This document shows, in pieces, positions 12,329-20,952 of a DNA stretch of 64,000 nucleotides (within the stretch, counting starts at the first letter, position 1; every line of letters begins with the position of its first letter). The notes below the pieces were generated by a model, which worked only from the letters and a program-made list of their open reading frames with translations, was not told the origin of the DNA and did no database searches. Source of the DNA: an uncultured archaeon (GTDB lineage Archaea; Altiarchaeota; Altiarchaeia; IMC4; SCGC-AAA252-I15); NCBI GenBank assembly GCA_902384455.1, contig CABMCB010000071.1, positions 139,315 to 203,314 on the forward strand. Direction: 5' to 3'. A program made the translations under genes and the position numbers.

Positions 12329-13102
12329 GTGGAAACCATGACAGAAAAAACACAATCACGCTGCCCAACCGGCATAACCGGCCTAGACAACATGCTAGGC
12401 GGCGGACTGCCAAGAGGAAGAACAATACTCGTCTCCGGAAGCTGCGGAACAGGAAAAACAACCTTAGCCCTCCAGTTCCTCATGGACGGTATATCAAAAT
12501 ACAACGAGCCCGGCATATACGTCACACTAGAACAAAGCGGAGACGAAATAAGAAAAGACGCACTCCAATTCGGCTGGGACCTACCCAAACTAGAAGCAGA
12601 ACGCAAACTACTCATAATAGACACATCACTTAGCAAAATAGGAATCAAAGACTTCATCACAACACTACCCATATCCCCAACCACAAGCTTCAGCTTACTA
12701 CCAGACGAATTCGACCTAAACAAAATAGTCGGACTAACCGTGGAAGCAGCCCGAAAATTAGGCGCAAGACGAATAGTAGTCGACAGCCTGCCGGCACTCG
12801 ACGTCCTGTTTAAGGAAACGCACGACATACGCAGGGCGCTGGTCAACCTCAACTACGAATTCAAGGCAAGCAACCTGACGACAATACTCATCGGTGAAAC
12901 AGAAGACGAAGACGGCGTGACCAAAATCCCCGTAGCCGACTACATCTCAGACGGTGTAATACTTTTGAAAAACAATGAAGCCCTCGACATGCGCACAATC
13001 CGGATACGCAAGATGCGCACTGCAAAACACACGCTAAAGCCGCAGACATACGAGATAACCCCCAAGGGCATAGAAATCAAGGAAGCTAAAAGCATACTAT
13101 AA
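12329..13102 (+). CDS. KaiC/RadA-like RecA-superfamily ATPase (single KaiC domain)
   Basis: 257 aa. Walker A GSCGTGKTT, Walker B hhhhD (RIVVDSL) and KaiC-like topology. Confidence 0.7.
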   Translation: METMTEKTQSRCPTGITGLDNMLGGGLPRGRTILVSGSCGTGKTTLALQFLMDGISKYNEPGIYVTLEQSGDEIRKDALQFGWDLPKLEAERKLLIIDTSLSKIGIKDFITTLPISPTTSFSLLPDEFDLNKIVGLTVEAARKLGARRIVVDSLPALDVLFKETHDIRRALVNLNYEFKASNLTTILIGETEDEDGVTKIPVADYISDGVILLKNNEALDMRTIRIRKMRTAKHTLKPQTYEITPKGIEIKEAKSIL

Positions 13103-13121
13103 GCCACCAGACGCGCAACCT

Positions 13122-13607
13122 ATGATTCTCCCCAAAAGATTCTTCGTGACCGTAGGACGCGGAACAAGCACCACTAGCGCACTTAACGCATTCGACAACG
13201 CCTTAGCCGCAGCCGGAATAGACCGCTGCAACCTCGTCCCAGTATCAAGCATCCTGCCGACAGACGCAATCCAGATTCCCCCAGTAAAAATCCCAGCAGG
13301 CACAATAACATTCTGCGTCCTATCACGCTACGACGGATTCGGAAAAGAAGGCGCAGCAGGAGTCGGATGGACACGCGGCGAAATCAAGAAAACAAGAGAC
13401 AGATTCGGGATGGTCGCCGAAGGCAGCGGAAAAACAACAAAAGACGTAGAATCAGAACTAAAAAATAAACTCCAGGAAATGGCGAAAAGCCGCAGCATGA
13501 CCCTACAAAAAGACATACAAACGGCAGTAACCCCAACCGGCAAAGTCCCTGAAAAAACATTCTGCAGCGCAATAGCTGCCGTAATATTCGTTCCAGAAGC
13601 AGACTAA
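13122..13607 (+). CDS. pdaD: Pyruvoyl-dependent arginine decarboxylase
   Basis: 161 aa. N-terminus resembles PdaD (..FFVTVGRG..CNLVPVSSILP..) with the Ser-Ser self-cleavage site context. Confidence 0.7.
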   Translation: MILPKRFFVTVGRGTSTTSALNAFDNALAAAGIDRCNLVPVSSILPTDAIQIPPVKIPAGTITFCVLSRYDGFGKEGAAGVGWTRGEIKKTRDRFGMVAEGSGKTTKDVESELKNKLQEMAKSRSMTLQKDIQTAVTPTGKVPEKTFCSAIAAVIFVPEAD

Positions 13608-13689
13608 ACCCCTTTTTAATTAACTCCTACCAACATATAACGTGGTGGGACTCGTGCGCCTTTCCAAAGAGGCCTAACCTTAACCCACG

Positions 13690-14304
13690 ATGCCCACAGA
13701 AAACGCAATTCTACCGATAATAAAAGCGGTTGCATTAATCGGAAGCTACGCCTTCCTAGGATTCGGCATAAAATACATAGACCAAGCATACGACGTCAAA
13801 ATATTCAACCGCACAATAGCCCGCGCACTAGCCGTAATATGCGGAATACTAATGGGCCTGCTCATAGCCCTAGACGAAACATCCGCAATGATACTTCTGG
13901 CCATAATCGTAGGCGTCGCAATAACCCGCAAAATAGACAACTACGCATTCTACGCCGGAGCAATACTAGCATTCATAACTCCAATATTCTTCGACGGAAT
14001 CAGAATACACTGGATGGGCCTGGCAGGCCTAATAATAGCAGGAACACTCGACGAAGAACTAAACAACTACGCAGACAAAAGAAAACTCCCCAAAATAATA
14101 TCCACCCTACTATACCTACGCCTCATAATGAAACTAACAATACTCGCCTACGCATTAGCCGGCCAGATAAACATAATATACTTCTTCGCATTCATAGCAT
14201 TCGACATAAGCTACATACTCGTCGACCAATACACCGCAATGATCCTAAAACGTAAACCGCCGTTTAGGAAAAAACTCGCAACAATAAACACCAACAACCT
14301 TTAA
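13690..14304 (+). CDS. Integral membrane protein, function unknown
   Basis: 204 aa, ~6 predicted TM helices, no diagnostic motif. Confidence 0.5.
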   Translation: MPTENAILPIIKAVALIGSYAFLGFGIKYIDQAYDVKIFNRTIARALAVICGILMGLLIALDETSAMILLAIIVGVAITRKIDNYAFYAGAILAFITPIFFDGIRIHWMGLAGLIIAGTLDEELNNYADKRKLPKIISTLLYLRLIMKLTILAYALAGQINIIYFFAFIAFDISYILVDQYTAMILKRKPPFRKKLATINTNNL

Positions 14305-14329
14305 TTAACCCCAACCCCATACGATAACC

Positions 14330-14728
14330 ATGGGGGAACCCACCGTAAACCGCAAAGACCAAATCACAAAAGTCCTCATCGAAGACCTGCAGCCACTCGA
14401 AGACATCTACTTCTGCTTCGTAGCAAGCAAAAACCTCGAAGGCATACTAGCCCCCATAAAAGAAGAACACAAAAACGAAATCCTACCCATATGGGAAGAC
14501 CTCAAAAACACAATGAACGAACTATTCGACGTAATCACACACTACAGTGAACACGGCCTAGATAAAATATACTTTGAACTAGGAAACTACGACGTACTCT
14601 TCTTCATACTGCCCGGAAGCAACACCGCATTAGGCGCAGTCATACCCGCACTCGCAAACAGAGGACTACTTGAAGTAGAACTGGAAAACGCCCGACGCGC
14701 CATAATCAAAATTCTAGAAGAAACATGA
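14330..14728 (+). CDS. Roadblock/LC7 (MglB-like) domain protein
   Basis: 132 aa with a pattern compatible with the Roadblock fold (...YFCFVASKNLEGILA... YDVLFFILPGSNTALGAVIPALANRGLL). Its stop overlaps the start of the next gene (ATGA). Confidence 0.55.
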   Translation: MGEPTVNRKDQITKVLIEDLQPLEDIYFCFVASKNLEGILAPIKEEHKNEILPIWEDLKNTMNELFDVITHYSEHGLDKIYFELGNYDVLFFILPGSNTALGAVIPALANRGLLEVELENARRAIIKILEET

Positions 14729-16050
14729 ACCCTGCTGAAATAGCACTAAAAAAAGAAATCATGGGCGCCACACCCACCCCCAAACCAGAATTCAAAGCCG
14801 CAGTAGGCTTAAGCCGCAAATGGGACGCCAGAGAAGCAGGACGAGAAGTAGCCAGAAACACCCTAGAACAACTAGGAAAAGACCCCCACTTCCTCCTACT
14901 CTTCTCAACAATACACTACGAAAAACACGGCGGATTCCAAGAACTACTCAACGGCGTATACGACATACTACCCAAAGAAACACCACTAATAGGCGGAACA
15001 GTCGCAGGATTCATAAACCAACAAGGATGCTACACACGAGGCGTCACAGCACTAGCAGCCAACTACCCAAACATGAACGTAGCAATAGGAATAGGACACA
15101 ACACACGTAAAAATCCGGCAAAAGCCGCCGAAGAATTATCCTCAAAAGTAAAAATATCAAATTCAAAAAATAATCTCCTTTTTTGTCTCATCCCCGGAGG
15201 GACCGTTCCAAGTTTTCCGGGTTTAGGACGAAAAAAAGTACTAAAATCTGGTTCAGTCGGAAATGCGGCAATAGGTTTGCTTGAACTTTCAATAGAACTT
15301 TCTCAATTAGGTCCTGGACGAGAAGATGAAGTAATCGAAGAATTAAGCAAAGATTTGGAGAATTATTATATTCTGGGAGGTAGTACAATGGACGATCTTA
15401 ATCAAAATCGTTCATACCAATTTTTTAATAAAGCAGTTAGCACAACAGACGTTGTGGGATTAAACCTATCCTCAGATTTACTAAATTATGAAATAATTAC
15501 CACAGATGGTTTGAAAAAAACCGGCAAAACCCTGCATATCACAAAAAAATCGTTAAGAAATTGTGTTATAGAGGAAATTGATAATAAACCTGCTACGACA
15601 GAATTTTTACGGAAAATTAACTGGCCCGAAGATTTTCTGAATGAAAGGCTATACACAAAAACTTTTTATTACCCTCTTGGAGAAACAGTTGAAGGAGTGC
15701 TAAGGCCTCAAATAATAGGGGCTTTTTTAGGGAATAATATTGCATGCGGATACAGCATAAAAACAAATGATTTAGATATCCTTTCCGCGTCTGGTCTGTC
15801 TTTAGTTGAATCAGCCAAAAACGCAATTCTACAAGCTAGCAAATACAAAATAAAAACATTAATTGGTGTTGTGTGTGCGACACAACTTGAAACATTAGGA
15901 CATAATATCTACCGGGTCTATAACGCAATATCTCCATTACTAGTAGACACCCCCTTTATTATCCTCTATTGCGCGGGTGAAGAAAGTTATTCGCCAAAAA
16001 GTCCTCCAAAACAACTTTATGACACGTTTAATATTGCCTCGATTAGCTAA
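14725..16050 (+). CDS. FIST-domain (FIST_N+FIST_C) putative sensor protein with an internal base-composition switch
   Basis: 441 aa. The N-terminal half (HFLLLFSTIHYE...PLIGGTVAGFI...) and C-terminal half (FYYPLGETVEGVLRPQIIGAFLG) fit FIST N/C. Composition changes abruptly near nt ~15110, from ~55% GC to ~35% GC. Confidence 0.55.
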   Translation: MNPAEIALKKEIMGATPTPKPEFKAAVGLSRKWDAREAGREVARNTLEQLGKDPHFLLLFSTIHYEKHGGFQELLNGVYDILPKETPLIGGTVAGFINQQGCYTRGVTALAANYPNMNVAIGIGHNTRKNPAKAAEELSSKVKISNSKNNLLFCLIPGGTVPSFPGLGRKKVLKSGSVGNAAIGLLELSIELSQLGPGREDEVIEELSKDLENYYILGGSTMDDLNQNRSYQFFNKAVSTTDVVGLNLSSDLLNYEIITTDGLKKTGKTLHITKKSLRNCVIEEIDNKPATTEFLRKINWPEDFLNERLYTKTFYYPLGETVEGVLRPQIIGAFLGNNIACGYSIKTNDLDILSASGLSLVESAKNAILQASKYKIKTLIGVVCATQLETLGHNIYRVYNAISPLLVDTPFIILYCAGEESYSPKSPPKQLYDTFNIASIS

Positions 16051-17177
16051 AGTGAACGGATTTTTTCAGCCCACTCACTTCTTACCGCCTTATCAACTTT
16101 TCTATCTGAAAATGCACGATAAAAATCATCCTTGATTTTTGTAGTACTCTCCAAATCTTCACCCAATTTCGCTCCTATATACCTCTTTTCTTCCCAACAT
16201 TTTCTGTACATTAGCAAATTTTTTTTCTTCCATTTTCCTTGTCTAATTGCGTTTATAGACGTCTCACCTGCAGCAATTCCTGATAGCATAGATGGGACAA
16301 TACCCTCACCTGTGATTGGCTCAACGATACCTGCAGAATCCCCAACTAAAATAATGCCGTTCCCAATCGTATTCCGTGCTGGCAGGGGTCCACACGTTGG
16401 GATACCACCCCCTCTAATCTCCTCTATGGTATACTCTCTTCCAATAATCTTATGTAACGGTAAATATTTTTGTATCAAAAATACTAATGCTTTTTTTAAA
16501 TTATTTCCCGGAGCTACTGCAACACCTATATTAGCAGTATTTTTCCCTTTTGGAAATACCCACCCATAACCTGATGGAAATTCCTCGCCAAAAAATACAT
16601 GCCAGTAGTTATTTTCTTTAATTTTTACTCCACTTACAAGTAACTCGTAAGCAACAGCGTATTCTCCCTGTTTCCACGGTTTTCTAATATTAGCCCATCT
16701 ACCAACGTTTGCTTCAAAACCATCTGCGCCAATAACTATTTTTGTAGAAATATCAAAATTTTTATTATCTCTCCCAACTTTTACTTTTATTCGATCTCCT
16801 CTAAATTCAAGTCCCTTCGCAGTAGCACCAGTATAAATGTTGGCGCCTTTTTCAGAAGCTATATCAGATAAATACTTATCAAAAATTTTTCTATCTAGAG
16901 TAAAACCTCGCCATTTCTCTCCGGAAAAAAAATATTCTTCGTTATAAAAATAAATTTTTGTACCATCTATCTCCTGATTAATAAAAGATTTTTCTGATGG
17001 TATTCCAGTATCTTGGAAGGCGTCCTTATTTATAGCTTCTGCGCATCTAACCGGACTTCCAATTTTCTCGTCTTTCTCAATATTAATTACGTCTAATCCC
17101 CCTTCAGCGGCAATTTTTGCAGACATTGACCCCGCCGGTCCTGCTCCTACTACTAGTACGTCGCATTCTTTTTTCAT
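16047..17177 (-). CDS. Geranylgeranyl reductase family FAD-dependent oxidoreductase
   Basis: 376 aa, VLVVGAGPAGSMSA dinucleotide-binding motif and GGR-family similarity throughout. Very AT-rich. Confidence 0.8.
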   Translation of the reverse strand: MKKECDVLVVGAGPAGSMSAKIAAEGGLDVINIEKDEKIGSPVRCAEAINKDAFQDTGIPSEKSFINQEIDGTKIYFYNEEYFFSGEKWRGFTLDRKIFDKYLSDIASEKGANIYTGATAKGLEFRGDRIKVKVGRDNKNFDISTKIVIGADGFEANVGRWANIRKPWKQGEYAVAYELLVSGVKIKENNYWHVFFGEEFPSGYGWVFPKGKNTANIGVAVAPGNNLKKALVFLIQKYLPLHKIIGREYTIEEIRGGGIPTCGPLPARNTIGNGIILVGDSAGIVEPITGEGIVPSMLSGIAAGETSINAIRQGKWKKKNLLMYRKCWEEKRYIGAKLGEDLESTTKIKDDFYRAFSDRKVDKAVRSEWAEKIRSL

Positions 17178-17180
17178 ATT

Positions 17181-18416
17181 TTATTTTTTTGTTATTTGTT
17201 TGTGTTTGTAGTCGAGGTATTCTAGTGTTTTTATTATTGTTTTGTTGATTGGGTTGTTCCATGTGAGTATTTCGTCTCTTAGTGTGTTGTAGTCTTGGTG
17301 TTGTAGTGTTCTGATTTTTTGTGGGGTTTGCAAGTCTGCGATTAGTAGTAGTAGCAGGAGGTATTTTTTTGGGTCGGTGTGGTCGAATAGTTGGTACATT
17401 AGTTTTCCGGTTTCTTCTGATTGTGTGAAGAATGATCCTATTGGAGATTTTTTTACGTTTTGTTCGTATGTTTCGAGTTCTTTTTTGTTTTTTATGTGTT
17501 CTACGGTTGTTTTTCCTGCTGTGTCGCCGCAGATTATTGCGGGTAGAATTCCTTCAACAAAGGGTTTGAGGTTTTGGTCTGCGGCGTCTCCTGTGAGGAT
17601 TACGTTGCCGTAAACCCACTTTTTGGCGATAGGCTGAGGGTTTACTTTGCCGCCTTTGTTTTCGATTTTGGTTGCGTTTTTGACTTGGTGTTTCATTTCC
17701 GGGATTTCAAGGAATTCTCGGAAGTAGTCTTCCATCGGTTTTTTGGGTTTAGCACACCCTACCCCTATGTTTGCTTTTGATTTACTTATAGGGAATACGT
17801 ATGCGTAGCCTGTGTCTGTGAAGTCGCCTACGTATACTTGCTCGAAGTTTGGTGACGCCAGGTTTACGTTGTGCATTTCCCAAGAGTAGACTTCAGCTAT
17901 GGTTCCCTCATGTTCGCGGTATTCCCCCAACAGGCGGAGTGTCGTCGAATCGTAGCCATCTGCACCAACGACGACTTTTGGTTCAATGTGGATTGTTTTT
18001 CCTTCGGAGTTTAAAGTGGCTTTTTTGACTGTGTTGTTATGCCCGACTTCGAAGTCAATCAGGTGCGTGTTCAGCATCAGTTTTGCCCCAGCGTTTGTTG
18101 CTTGTGCAGCCACCCACTTGTCAAAGTGTTTCCTGTTTACGGTGCATCCCTTCCAAAGTATTCCGGTACGCCGTACGATTATGTCTTCAGCCCAGAATTC
18201 TATTCCAGCAGTATCCCAAATGAGTTGTTCCTGCGGAATTTTGAAGGGAAGAAACGGGAAGAAGCATTGTCCTATCCCTTCTGCGCAGTGCACTGGCGTC
18301 CCCAGTTTCGTTCTTTTGTCTACAAAGATAGTTTTGAGTCCGGCCAGAGCGCATGCTCTAGCTGCGGAGGAGCCGGCTGGTCCTGCGCCAACGACAAGTA
18401 CGTCGCATTCCATCAA
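17181..18416 (-). CDS. Geranylgeranyl reductase family paralog with C-terminal extension
   Basis: 411 aa, VLVVGAGPAGSSAA motif, paralogous to the adjacent GGR. The coding strand is strongly A/C-biased. Confidence 0.8.
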   Translation of the reverse strand: MMECDVLVVGAGPAGSSAARACALAGLKTIFVDKRTKLGTPVHCAEGIGQCFFPFLPFKIPQEQLIWDTAGIEFWAEDIIVRRTGILWKGCTVNRKHFDKWVAAQATNAGAKLMLNTHLIDFEVGHNNTVKKATLNSEGKTIHIEPKVVVGADGYDSTTLRLLGEYREHEGTIAEVYSWEMHNVNLASPNFEQVYVGDFTDTGYAYVFPISKSKANIGVGCAKPKKPMEDYFREFLEIPEMKHQVKNATKIENKGGKVNPQPIAKKWVYGNVILTGDAADQNLKPFVEGILPAIICGDTAGKTTVEHIKNKKELETYEQNVKKSPIGSFFTQSEETGKLMYQLFDHTDPKKYLLLLLLIADLQTPQKIRTLQHQDYNTLRDEILTWNNPINKTIIKTLEYLDYKHKQITKK

Positions 18417-18456: not shown

Positions 18457-19686
18457 GTGAGGCAATTCTTAAGCGGGGCATGGAGTACTCTCTTAGGCGA
18501 TCGTCAATTGCTTCTACTGTGCATCTCCCTCTTTATCTTCTACTTGGGTGGCGGAGCCGTTCTACTTTTGGTCCCAATTCTTGCGGAAAAAACCGTCGGC
18601 CGGGTTGAGTTTGTCGGTCTAATCATGGCGGTTCCGGCGTTCATTTCACTACTCCTGTCAATTCCTGTCGGGAGTTTATCGGATAGTTTAGGTAGAAAGA
18701 ACGTTCTTTTGGCCGGTTTTGCTTCTATGATACTGCCTGGTATATTCCTGTCTATCTCTAACGACGCCTTTCTTTTAGTGGTTGCTATGGCGTTTTTAGG
18801 TTTAGGTTATGCGTTAATCACTACTTCTTCGCGAGCTTTTGTCATGGACTTTGCTCCACGGGATGGCGCCTCAAAATACTTTAGTTTTATCAACACAGCA
18901 TCAAGTCTTGGTACAGCTATTGGACCCTTTCTAGGCGGAATCCTTTTGGTTGGCGGCTTACAGCAGGGTACCCTACTGATAGCATCTCTTTTTATATTTA
19001 CTTGCGCCTTTGCAGGGGTAGTATCTCTATCCCTAAGGGAGACCGTGAAAGAAACTACGTCTGTTTCTAAGGGCTTAAAGTTGCTTAGCAAGGACGGGTT
19101 TTACTTTAGAGGATTTGCAGAATACGGTAAACTAAAGTCTATAGGGGGCGTAGTTTTTGGTCTGACCTTTATGTTGACTTTCCTTGACCGAGCAGTCTGG
19201 ACTTTTGAGCCACTGTACTATAATGAAGGAATGAATTCGTACACGGTGGGTCTTATCCTATCCATGTTTATTATTCCCTATATCCTCTTTGAGATTCCGG
19301 GCGGCTTTCTCGCCGATAAATACGGGAAATTTAAGACATTATTTTTAGGTCTATTGGTGGCTGGATTCTCGTTGATATTGTTCGGCTCAACAAATAGTCC
19401 AACTGTTTTGGTTGCGGCGGCTTTTCTATCTACGACTGGTTTGGCCCTTGCGTGGCCGTCAATAAGCGGGTTGCTGTCGGATGAATCTGATTCGCATAAT
19501 AGGGGTCAAATTGTGGGTGTCTGGAATTCATCTGAAAATTTGGGTTTCACGTTGAGTCCTATACTCGGTGGTTTAATCGCGGGCTATTATCAAAGCATAA
19601 GTAAAGTGTTTACTTTAGTGGGCGTTCTGTTTCTTTTTGCGTGTATTGCGGTTGTTTTGTTCAAGAGGTCAAATAAAATTGTTTAA
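18457..19686 (+). CDS. MFS transporter
   Basis: 409 aa, 12 TM topology, MFS signature-like loop (SDSLGRKN). Confidence 0.75.
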   Translation: MRQFLSGAWSTLLGDRQLLLLCISLFIFYLGGGAVLLLVPILAEKTVGRVEFVGLIMAVPAFISLLLSIPVGSLSDSLGRKNVLLAGFASMILPGIFLSISNDAFLLVVAMAFLGLGYALITTSSRAFVMDFAPRDGASKYFSFINTASSLGTAIGPFLGGILLVGGLQQGTLLIASLFIFTCAFAGVVSLSLRETVKETTSVSKGLKLLSKDGFYFRGFAEYGKLKSIGGVVFGLTFMLTFLDRAVWTFEPLYYNEGMNSYTVGLILSMFIIPYILFEIPGGFLADKYGKFKTLFLGLLVAGFSLILFGSTNSPTVLVAAAFLSTTGLALAWPSISGLLSDESDSHNRGQIVGVWNSSENLGFTLSPILGGLIAGYYQSISKVFTLVGVLFLFACIAVVLFKRSNKIV

Positions 19687-19713: not shown

Positions 19714-20952
19714 GTGAGATTACTCGGTCTACAGGGTGTTCGGTCGGCAGTTCCTAAACCCCTTCTACTGGTTAGTCTTGCGGCTTTTTTCTATACTTTG
19801 GGTAACGGCGCTGTCTGGTTTGTTTTGCCGATTAAGGCAGAAGCTTTACTGAAAAACCTCATGTTAGTCGGCCTTATTGTTGCAGTCCCTAATGCAGTCT
19901 CTCTTATCTTCGATGCGTCTATCGGGGGGTATTCTGATAGGGTGGGGCGCAAGAAACTGTTTTTTGTAGGTCTTCTTGTTATGGTTTTTTTGGGTCTTCT
20001 TCTTCCGTCCATCTATTCGTTGCCGGCATTCATACTTTTCATGGTCGTGTTTGGCCTTGCTAACCAGTTAATTTTCATTTCTGGCAGGGCTTATTTGATG
20101 GATATTGCTCCTGCTGGCAAGACGTCTAGTTATTTTGGTGTTCAAGAAGCTGCCGCTCAAATTGGGTTTGCCATAGGGCCCGTAGTCGCCGGAGTCATAG
20201 TTGCAGATTCGTTGTCCATCGGAATCCAAAACACCGGTTTACTCTATGCCGCATTGTGTCTGGTGGCTCTGTTTTGCGTATTCCTACTGAAAGAAACAGT
20301 GAAAACCAACGAATCCCCATTAATCGCAGTAAAGAACCTTATCGAAAAAGACAAAATTCTCCTACGCAGCATACTAGACTTCAAACAACTTAAGTCAGCG
20401 GGCTTGTTAATTCTGGTGACGACTTTCGTAATAACCTCCGCAGACGGCCTAATTTGGGCTCTTGAGCCGCTCTACGCTAACCGAGGCGTTGATTCCGCGG
20501 CAGTGGGTGTGATTCTTTTCATGTTCGTCCTACCCTACATATTATTTAACGTGCCGTTAGGGCATTTTGCAGACAAGCACGGGAAAAAGAAACTAATAGT
20601 TCTCGGGCTCTTCCTCTCCGGCGTCTTCCTAATCCTCTTCGGCTACTCTGGAAGCGAGTTGACTATGATAGCAACCGCATTCATAGCCACAACAGGACTC
20701 GCCTGCATACGCCCTTCACTCGGCGGATTGCTCACTGATCTAGCCCAAAACAAACAAAAAGGCGGAGTAGTAGGCATATGGGACGCTGCAGAAGACCTAG
20801 GGTACATAATAGGTCCTCTTACTGGTGGAATAATAGCTGAATTCTATAAGGACATATCCATCCCATTCGTCTTTCTCGGCATCATAATGCTCGCTCTAGG
20901 GGTCGTGACGTTAATTCTGCCGGCAATAAAAAGCAACACGTCAGTAGCCTAG
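19714..20952 (+). CDS. MFS transporter (tandem paralog)
   Basis: 412 aa, 12 TM, motif YSDRVGRKK between TM2/3; paralogous to 18457-19686. Confidence 0.75.
   Translation: MRLLGLQGVRSAVPKPLLLVSLAAFFYTLGNGAVWFVLPIKAEALLKNLMLVGLIVAVPNAVSLIFDASIGGYSDRVGRKKLFFVGLLVMVFLGLLLPSIYSLPAFILFMVVFGLANQLIFISGRAYLMDIAPAGKTSSYFGVQEAAAQIGFAIGPVVAGVIVADSLSIGIQNTGLLYAALCLVALFCVFLLKETVKTNESPLIAVKNLIEKDKILLRSILDFKQLKSAGLLILVTTFVITSADGLIWALEPLYANRGVDSAAVGVILFMFVLPYILFNVPLGHFADKHGKKKLIVLGLFLSGVFLILFGYSGSELTMIATAFIATTGLACIRPSLGGLLTDLAQNKQKGGVVGIWDAAEDLGYIIGPLTGGIIAEFYKDISIPFVFLGIIMLALGVVTLILPAIKSNTSVA

Follow-up and report, generated by a model that had tools for sequence, protein, structure and literature searches.

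A pair of adjacent genes in a 64,000-nucleotide stretch of an uncultured archaeon of the Altiarchaeota (GenBank assembly GCA_902384455.1, contig CABMCB010000071.1, positions 139,315 to 203,314; the whole stretch is referred to below as the window) encodes a 132-amino-acid protein with a predicted Roadblock fold and a 441-amino-acid FIST-domain protein. Here, we find that this pair forms the almost invariably present core of a gene cluster conserved in archaea. It is accompanied there by one to three flavoprotein reductases of the geranylgeranyl-reductase (GGR) family and one or two copies of a membrane protein that we name TM204, in many cases by a B12-binding radical-SAM enzyme and, in Altiarchaeota and DPANN archaea, by a KaiC-like ATPase. 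The strongest signal in this genomic context, the GGR-family reductases and the orphan TM204, had been overlooked in an earlier interpretation of the letters alone (the sequence-only reading), which proposed that the two translationally coupled genes may be a ligand-sensing module lacking its usual GTPase. Given this context, the pair probably has a role in modifying membrane lipids or in controlling that process. We put at about 0.5 the probability of a more specific reading, in which the two proteins would act as a sensor/adaptor pair, together with the KaiC-like nucleoside triphosphatase (NTPase) where one is encoded, tied to the saturation of isoprenoid lipids.

Gene neighbourhoods were compared in two sets of loci. 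The Roadblock-anchored set, annotated by tblastn and BLAST at the level of open reading frames (ORFs), contained 31 loci from GTDB species representatives, namely Altiarchaeota and metagenome-assembled genomes (MAGs) labelled Aenigmatarchaeota, Nanohalarchaeota, Micrarchaeota, and Iainarchaeum. The FIST-anchored set, annotated with hidden Markov models built here and BLAST, contained 80 metagenome loci (L036–L115) and three NCBI, ENA, and Logan loci; the metagenomic loci are not phylogenetically independent. A Roadblock-like gene was located directly upstream of FIST on the same strand in 50 of the 59 assessable FIST-anchored loci, and FIST was found downstream of the Roadblock-like gene in 18–19 of the 22 Roadblock-anchored loci with enough downstream sequence. 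The pairing, which spans Altiarchaeota, DPANN lineages, and Thermoplasmatota, is thus not unique to the genome in which it was first seen. GGR-family genes were present within 3 kb downstream of FIST in 42/56 assessable FIST-anchored loci, TM204, frequently duplicated in tandem, within 6 kb of FIST in 28/32, and a B12 radical-SAM gene no more than 8 kb away in 10/22. Unbiased all-against-all clustering of the ORFs around FIST in the 83 loci led to the same ranking, with GGR (55 loci), Roadblock-like (55), TM204 (42), and radical-SAM (28) families followed by an AsnC-type regulator and KaiC (15 each); a polyprenyl synthase was nearby in nine.

In a typical layout (locus L037), the genes for KaiC, the Roadblock-like protein, and FIST follow each other on one strand and are met by two GGR and then two TM204 genes on the opposite strand. 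In the window, the order is KaiC-like, a decarboxylase gene (see below), TM204, Roadblock-like, and FIST, followed by GGR1 and GGR2 on the opposite strand; every recurrent member except the radical-SAM gene is therefore held within positions 12329–18416 (Table 1). The stop codons of FIST and GGR1, which are convergent, overlap by 4 nt (16047–16050), leaving no intergenic terminator space between the two units. A third arrangement is seen in a complete Thermoplasmatales genome (L033, CP070798), where a 133-amino-acid homologue of the Roadblock-like protein (hhalign 3.2e-39), FIST, and GGR are encoded on the same strand with a 9-nt gap between FIST and GGR, and the genes after GGR specify a 199-amino-acid membrane protein homologous to TM204 of the window (hhalign 2.7e-48), a 68-amino-acid Cys-rich protein, and a 649-amino-acid radical-SAM enzyme. 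Gene order therefore varies: TM204 precedes the pair in the window but follows it in other loci, and GGR is either convergent or co-directional. The genes have stayed linked although their order and strand have changed, which speaks for selection to keep them close. In L033, L031, L087, and L075, GGR is co-directional with FIST at a distance of 4–71 nt, and these short gaps suggest co-transcription.

Table 1 Features of the window around the Roadblock-like/FIST gene pair
Feature	Position in window	Strand	Details
KaiC-like ATPase, single-domain, 257 amino acids	12329–13102	+	Pfam PF06745, 4.1e-61
Pyruvoyl-dependent arginine decarboxylase (PvlArgDC)	13122–13607	+	PF01862, 3.5e-31; between KaiC-like gene and TM204
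TM204, orphan polytopic membrane protein, 204 amino acids	13690–14304	+	invariant acidic motifs GIKYID..D, K.D, DE..N...D, FD..Y
Roadblock-fold gene	14330–14728	+	132 amino acids; ORF read from the window
ATGA stop/start overlap of Roadblock-like and FIST ORFs	14725–14728	+	...gaa aca TGA over ATG 14725–14727
FIST gene	14725–16050	+	441 amino acids, or 429 from start at 14761
GGR1, GGR-family flavoprotein reductase, 376 amino acids	16047–17177	-	TIGR02032 206.1 bits (cutoff 158.8); Pfam GGR_cat, FAD_binding_3
GGR2, GGR-family reductase, 411 amino acids	17181–18416	-	TIGR02032 153.5 bits; GGR_cat 32.2 bits
Major facilitator superfamily (MFS) transporter, first copy	18457–19686	+	divergent from GGR2
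MFS transporter, second copy	19714–20952	+	
V4R protein, 423 amino acids	20941–22212	-	PF02830, 4.7e-17; N-terminal zinc-ribbon-like CxxC pair, C-terminal V4R

Both ORFs of the pair are real, conserved genes, found exactly at the coordinates and in the sizes given by the sequence-only reading, with 192 homologues of the 132-amino-acid protein (E ≤ 0.01) and 625 of the 441-amino-acid protein (E ≤ 0.001); the named homologues are for the most part from Altiarchaeota, and identical protein records exist for an uncultured archaeon (VVB53676.1, 132 amino acids; VVB53677.1, 441 amino acids). The ATGA overlap between them, from which translational coupling had been proposed, is true of the sequence, but a role in coupling is uncertain, since a second in-frame ATG at 14761 (Met13), giving a 429-amino-acid product, better matches the lengths of homologues, which are usually 423–430 amino acids. 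Alignments to these homologues start at about query residue 17–23, and a start at 14761 would leave a spacer of 32 nt, compared with a median Roadblock-to-FIST gap of ~28 nt in 50 related loci. The overlap is not conserved either: 4-nt overlaps occurred in only 6/50 and 3/10 related loci of two locus sets, where ORF starts are approximate and the ORF caller prefers the most upstream start. What is conserved is the same-strand adjacency of the two genes. In two loci, this adjacency is interrupted by two-gene inserts (L009:3206–3966 and L016:4030–4853) lying between the Roadblock-like/TM204 genes and FIST and splitting the tight pair; these look, judged by sequence, like toxin–antitoxin pairs (a PIN-like protein with an antitoxin, and a nucleotidyltransferase-like with a HEPN-like protein). 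In L032, a gene that by the look of its sequence is of the aminotransferase/desulfurase type occupies the gap before FIST. The G+C content over window positions 14001–18000, which cover the Roadblock-like, FIST, GGR1, and GGR2 genes, is 0.39–0.41 versus 0.50–0.54 in much of the window, and values of 0.45–0.48 persist out to ~30 kb of the window; the low-GC stretch may differ from its surroundings in composition because it was acquired, although this is only a possibility.

The assignment of the 132-amino-acid protein to Roadblock/LC7 held at the level of the predicted fold and failed at the level of sequence profiles. An AlphaFold2 model of high confidence scores (pLDDT 91.3, pTM 0.85) showed the DSSP element order H-E-E-H-E-E-E-H (a-b-b-a-b-b-b-a), and its best 50 Foldseek matches against PDB were all of the Roadblock/MglB/LAMTOR type (TM 0.60–0.70), with 9jue_F on top (E 3.8e-6, TM 0.70) and with Asgard Roadblock proteins (9jue, 7f8m), MglB (6izw, 6hjm, 3t1s), and LAMTOR among them. 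At the same time, the profile search that had been named as the check on this assignment came out negative: Pfam Robl_LC7 (PF03259) gave zero matches at E ≤ 1 to the window protein and 28 close homologues, and two matches only, at E 0.11, among 41 distant representatives. NCBIfam gave no significant Roadblock support, searches of PDB sequences, whether started from the one protein or from a profile, were empty, and an hhalign comparison of the family with a human DYNLRB1 sequence was not significant (E 0.18). When 1.84 billion representative proteins were searched exhaustively with an HMMER profile, the canonical Roadblock families were not reached, and the family itself was recovered as only 77 clusters at 50% identity, which makes it a small one. 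A fold match despite failed profiles is the reason why we call the product a Roadblock-fold protein of a separate family; with the sequence-profile test failed and a GTPase partner absent, we did not file it under PF03259. On the strength of the model, it would thus represent a small family of its own that Pfam Robl_LC7 misses, and one which a very recent Pfam family may already cover, as homologues P0037, P0040, P0043, and P0094 carry the precomputed accession PF27410.1. The most conserved stretch of the family, P106–R123 (PALANRGLLEVELENARR), maps to the b5/a3 junction between the last strand and the C-terminal helix of the model and is a candidate interaction surface. Two rare proteins, P0330 and P0331, combine the Roadblock-like domain with an N-terminal extension, helical or coiled-coil in appearance in one and opening with a MinD/ParA-like 'GKGGVGKST' stub in the other; whether true fusions or products of faulty assembly, as Rosetta-stone evidence they were dropped, being too few and too odd.

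For the 441-amino-acid protein, both FIST_N and FIST_C had been proposed. The former is clear, with PF08495 matching at 86.6 bits (cutoff 23.2, E 2.5e-24) over profile positions 2–189 of 189. The latter (PF10442) was undetected in the window protein at E ≤ 1 and detected in 19 of 21 homologues with 44–63% identity and full-length alignment (best 2.5e-9); as these homologues align end to end, a FIST_C domain is presumably present but divergent. The protein does not qualify as a NosP equivalog (NCBIfam NF041558, 56.5 bits vs a cutoff of 450), and neither the Pfam scan of the window nor the 83-locus clustering placed a histidine kinase or a GGDEF/HD-GYP protein among the neighbours. Within the subfamily, a single His (H64) and a single Cys (C384) are invariant, with no evident cofactor motif. 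A P-loop-like 'GLKKTGKT' string in the window FIST protein is absent from the subfamily consensus and was therefore taken as chance. Additional FIST copies were seen in a few loci: three tandem paralogues after KaiC and the Roadblock-like gene in one uncultured-archaeon MAG (L024:10390–14411), and a second copy in L038, L081, and L082.

The missing GTPase of the sequence-only reading is indeed missing, in that no Ras-like P-loop ORF was found within the 64-kb window and no GTPase family among the recurrent neighbours in the 83 loci; an NTPase, however, is adjacent. The KaiC-like gene lies 1.2 kb upstream of the Roadblock-like gene in the window, and in the Altiarchaeota/DPANN GTDB loci with enough upstream sequence, it immediately precedes the Roadblock-like gene on the same strand in 27 of 30, TM204 sometimes intervening, with gaps of 0–80 nt in most. 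Walker A (GxxGxGK), Walker B D152, and residues E190, R222, K228, and R230 are invariant across 18 KaiC-like orthologues. The protein scored below every cutoff of the NCBIfam archaeal KaiC subfamilies, and would therefore belong to a separate KaiC-like subfamily. In Altiarchaeota/DPANN, this ATPase is likely the NTPase partner of the Roadblock-like protein. The PvlArgDC gene that follows it in the window has no counterpart in the 31 related GTDB loci (tblastn), and thus seems to have been inserted into the cluster in a single lineage. We also considered an amino-acid-sensing role, based on this gene and on glycine-cleavage (GCV) H and T genes upstream in Thermoplasmatota loci, and set it aside as what looks like lineage synteny, since GCV was present in 11–15 of the 83 loci, apparently from one clade, and PvlArgDC in the window only.

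A V4R protein is encoded 4.9 kb downstream of the pair, as the sequence-only reading had noted. Its proposed link to a wider Roadblock/longin/V4R network did not hold up, because V4R was found near FIST elsewhere only in L007 and L073 (at 4–5 kb) among about 110 loci, and V4R was accordingly rejected as a conserved cluster member. The window V4R protein has a sub-threshold similarity to MsvR (54.8 bits, cutoff 220).

The two GGR-family reductases of the window share 33% identity. GGR2 falls just under the TIGR02032 cutoff (158.8) that GGR1 passes and is over the GGR_cat (PF22578) cutoff of 27. The GGR of the Thermoplasmatales cluster matched GGR2 best (191 bits, vs 142 bits for GGR1), and the GGR2 type is the more widespread partner. 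Paired GGRs were seen in 19 of the 80 metagenome loci L036–L115. Their substrates could be archaeol or glycerol dialkyl glycerol tetraether (GDGT) precursors, quinones, or polyprenols. TM204 was predicted to be all-helical (AlphaFold2 pLDDT 87.9), and a Foldseek search of the model against PDB gave no fold match (best E 0.8, TM < 0.27). Its invariant acidic motifs DxxxD, KxD, and DExxNxxxD bear a putative resemblance to the Mg2+/diphosphate-binding motifs of prenyl-handling enzymes. UbiA, CarS, and terpene-synthase enzymes were considered as relatives of TM204, but only the acidic motifs spoke for them and the fold search gave no support. The cluster radical-SAM enzyme is of the B12-binding, TIGR03975-like type (329 bits), a class that includes archaeal lipid-tail cyclases, methylases, and a desaturase (bioRxiv 10.1101/2025.10.20.683597). 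In Thermoplasmatota-type clusters, a 68-amino-acid protein with a CxxxCxxC-x5-C motif and without a family match is encoded between TM204 and the B12 radical-SAM gene (L033:9335–9541, minus strand, and seven other loci); it could be a small Fe–S/redox partner or a peptide substrate. Beyond GGR2 in the window, two tandem MFS paralogues (~40% identical) are transcribed divergently from it; MFS transporters are reported to adjoin archaeal GDGT methylase genes often (bioRxiv 10.1101/2025.10.20.683597).

Taken as a sensor/adaptor pair, the two proteins would work as follows. Input would come from FIST, which would bind a cue that is a small molecule, redox in nature, or derived from lipids. The adaptor would be the Roadblock-fold protein, presumably dimeric, which would use its conserved b5/a3 surface to couple FIST to an NTPase, that is, to the KaiC-like ATPase where one is encoded. 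As output, the steps by which GGR, TM204, and radical SAM saturate and modify isoprenoid chains at the membrane would be controlled or assembled. This mechanism is drawn from three precedents, in which Roadblock proteins regulate NTPases, NosP tunes a neighbouring kinase, and KaiC-like ATPases act with small partners. The predicted fold of the 132-amino-acid protein is that of MglB, Roadblock, and LAMTOR proteins (a-b-b-a-b-b-b(-a); TM 0.65–0.70 for 9jue, 7f8m, 6izw, and 6hjm), and, as with MglB and Roadblock proteins, it is a small stand-alone product encoded beside an NTPase. It differs from Roadblock/LC7 (PF03259) in its lack of detectable sequence-profile similarity, from MglB/MglA in that its neighbouring NTPase is KaiC-like, of the RecA superfamily, and not a Ras-like GTPase, and from MglB/Roadblock proteins in general in its obligate FIST partner and the tiny size of its family. 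NosP is a stand-alone FIST protein that binds haem as a cofactor and also binds the kinase specified by the neighbouring gene, whose autophosphorylation it modulates, which makes it a precedent for FIST as an auxiliary sensor acting via protein–protein contact (PMC12570481). Similarly to NosP/NosK, the cluster described here places a stand-alone FIST_N+FIST_C protein of ~400 amino acids beside a signalling NTP-using enzyme; unlike in that system, there is no nearby histidine kinase or c-di-GMP enzyme and no sign of haem binding, and the setting is archaeal and GGR-linked. Archaeal KaiC-like ATPases have been proposed to act with small second components (PMC4858521, PMC5847659). The present cluster resembles such KaiC hubs in its single-domain ATPase with intact motifs and a small partner gene directly after it, and differs from them in that the partner has a Roadblock fold, not a KaiB/thioredoxin-like or DEATH-like one, and in that the KaiC component is dispensable in Thermoplasmatota. 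A further point of comparison is the GGR-centred cluster of Methanosarcina acetivorans, which we take to consist of GGR, ferredoxin, and tetraether synthase (Tes): the Thermoplasmatota version of the present cluster likewise groups GGR with radical SAM and a small Cys-rich protein, the differences being that its radical SAM is of the B12-binding type, not Tes, and that Roadblock-like, FIST, and TM204 are added.

Several observations weigh against this reading. The Thermoplasmatales loci, including L033, lack KaiC in the surrounding 6 kb, and a KaiC-like gene occurs within 3 kb upstream of FIST in only 11/30 assessable FIST-anchored loci, so that a step involving this NTPase cannot apply to all clusters. 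GGR and TM204 mostly lie on the strand opposite to FIST, in convergent orientation, and therefore form a separate transcription unit. The GGR proteins scored far below the cutoffs of lipid-reductase equivalogs: against the DGGGPL-reductase equivalog NF041160 (cutoff 780), GGR1, GGR2, and the L033 GGR reached 185, 128, and 134 bits, and against NF041080 (cutoff 580), 155, 88, and 73 bits, respectively. TM204 had no match in Pfam (22 members searched), NCBIfam, or PDB sequence and profile searches. Finally, the dependence among metagenomic loci means that the raw fractions given above overstate the number of independent observations. A stronger formulation, that of a hitherto unrecognised archaeal system dedicated to controlling or performing the saturation and modification of isoprenoid membrane lipids, can be advanced only tentatively. 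Its parts would be a FIST sensor, a new family of Roadblock-fold adaptors, a KaiC-like ATPase in some lineages, paired GGR paralogues, and TM204, whose DxxxD and DExxNxxxD motifs suggest an enzyme handling Mg2+ and diphosphate.

Among the other explanations, one takes the Roadblock-fold dimer and FIST as non-regulatory structural, substrate-delivery, or electron-transfer subunits of a membrane GGR/TM204 complex, with a Ragulator-like scaffold or a cofactor-binding FIST protein in place of a signalling module. The linkage of the pair to GGR and TM204 is both tighter and taxonomically broader than that to KaiC, and in L033 and L031 the Roadblock-like, FIST, and GGR genes are co-directional, with FIST–GGR gaps of 4–9 nt, all of which would fit a physical complex. 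Many archaeal GGRs have no known physiological reductant. A haem cofactor in a FIST protein has its precedent in NosP (PMC12570481). Nevertheless, the FIST subfamily of this cluster offers just the one invariant His (H64) and Cys (C384) already mentioned, characterised FIST and Roadblock proteins are sensors and NTPase regulators, and the adjacency of KaiC in Altiarchaeota/DPANN would be left unexplained; we regard accessory subunits as a somewhat doubtful alternative.

That same adjacency would support a module centred on KaiC, in which the Roadblock-fold adaptor would stand in KaiB's place, FIST would supply the input, and the proximity of GGR and TM204 would be inherited synteny. The Roadblock-like gene follows KaiC closely in nearly all assessable Altiarchaeota/DPANN loci (27/30, gaps mostly 0–80 nt), L002, L008, and L017 retain KaiC and the Roadblock-like gene without FIST or GGR, and small second components are what has been proposed for archaeal KaiC-like ATPases (PMC4858521, PMC5847659). 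However, Roadblock-like, FIST, GGR, and TM204 persist without KaiC in Thermoplasmatota, and proximity retained through rearranged gene order points to selection, not to mere inheritance, making this explanation an unlikely one. Least probable, and in our view improbable outright, is the autonomous ligand-sensing module of the sequence-only reading, which would belong to a Roadblock/longin/V4R network and either do without an NTPase or serve as an MglB-like GTPase-activating protein for a GTPase encoded elsewhere. MglB is among the best structural matches of the Roadblock fold, and V4R proteins are encoded 4.9 kb off in the window and near FIST in L007 and L073. On the other hand, two of ~110 loci do not amount to a conserved V4R neighbour, neither a Ras-like P-loop ORF in the 64-kb window nor a recurrent GTPase family in the 83 loci was found, and the NTPase that does stand next to the pair is KaiC-like.

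The cluster is apparently undescribed so far. We found no paper linking FIST with Roadblock, KaiC, or GGR; the supplementary tables of the key KaiC-hub study might list such an association. In the text of a 2024 review of GGR multiplicity that was covered by a term search, the roles of GGR paralogues appear as an acknowledged open problem and FIST is not mentioned (PMC10821996). The gene set described here is defined and testable, bringing together a Roadblock fold and FIST in a new partnership, the orphan TM204, and two paralogous GGRs. It is relevant because the regulation of isoprenoid membrane-lipid saturation and tailoring in archaea is largely unknown; if the dedicated lipid-modifying system proposed above exists, no earlier pathway from sensor to enzyme would have been put forward for homeoviscous control of archaeal lipid saturation. 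The reach of the Roadblock fold would also be widened, to a family unseen by current sequence profiles and with a KaiC-like neighbouring NTPase, and a member of it would be the first Roadblock-fold protein to act with a RecA-type ATPase instead of a GTPase, which is relevant to models of the evolution of Roadblock-based NTPase regulation in archaea prior to eukaryotes.

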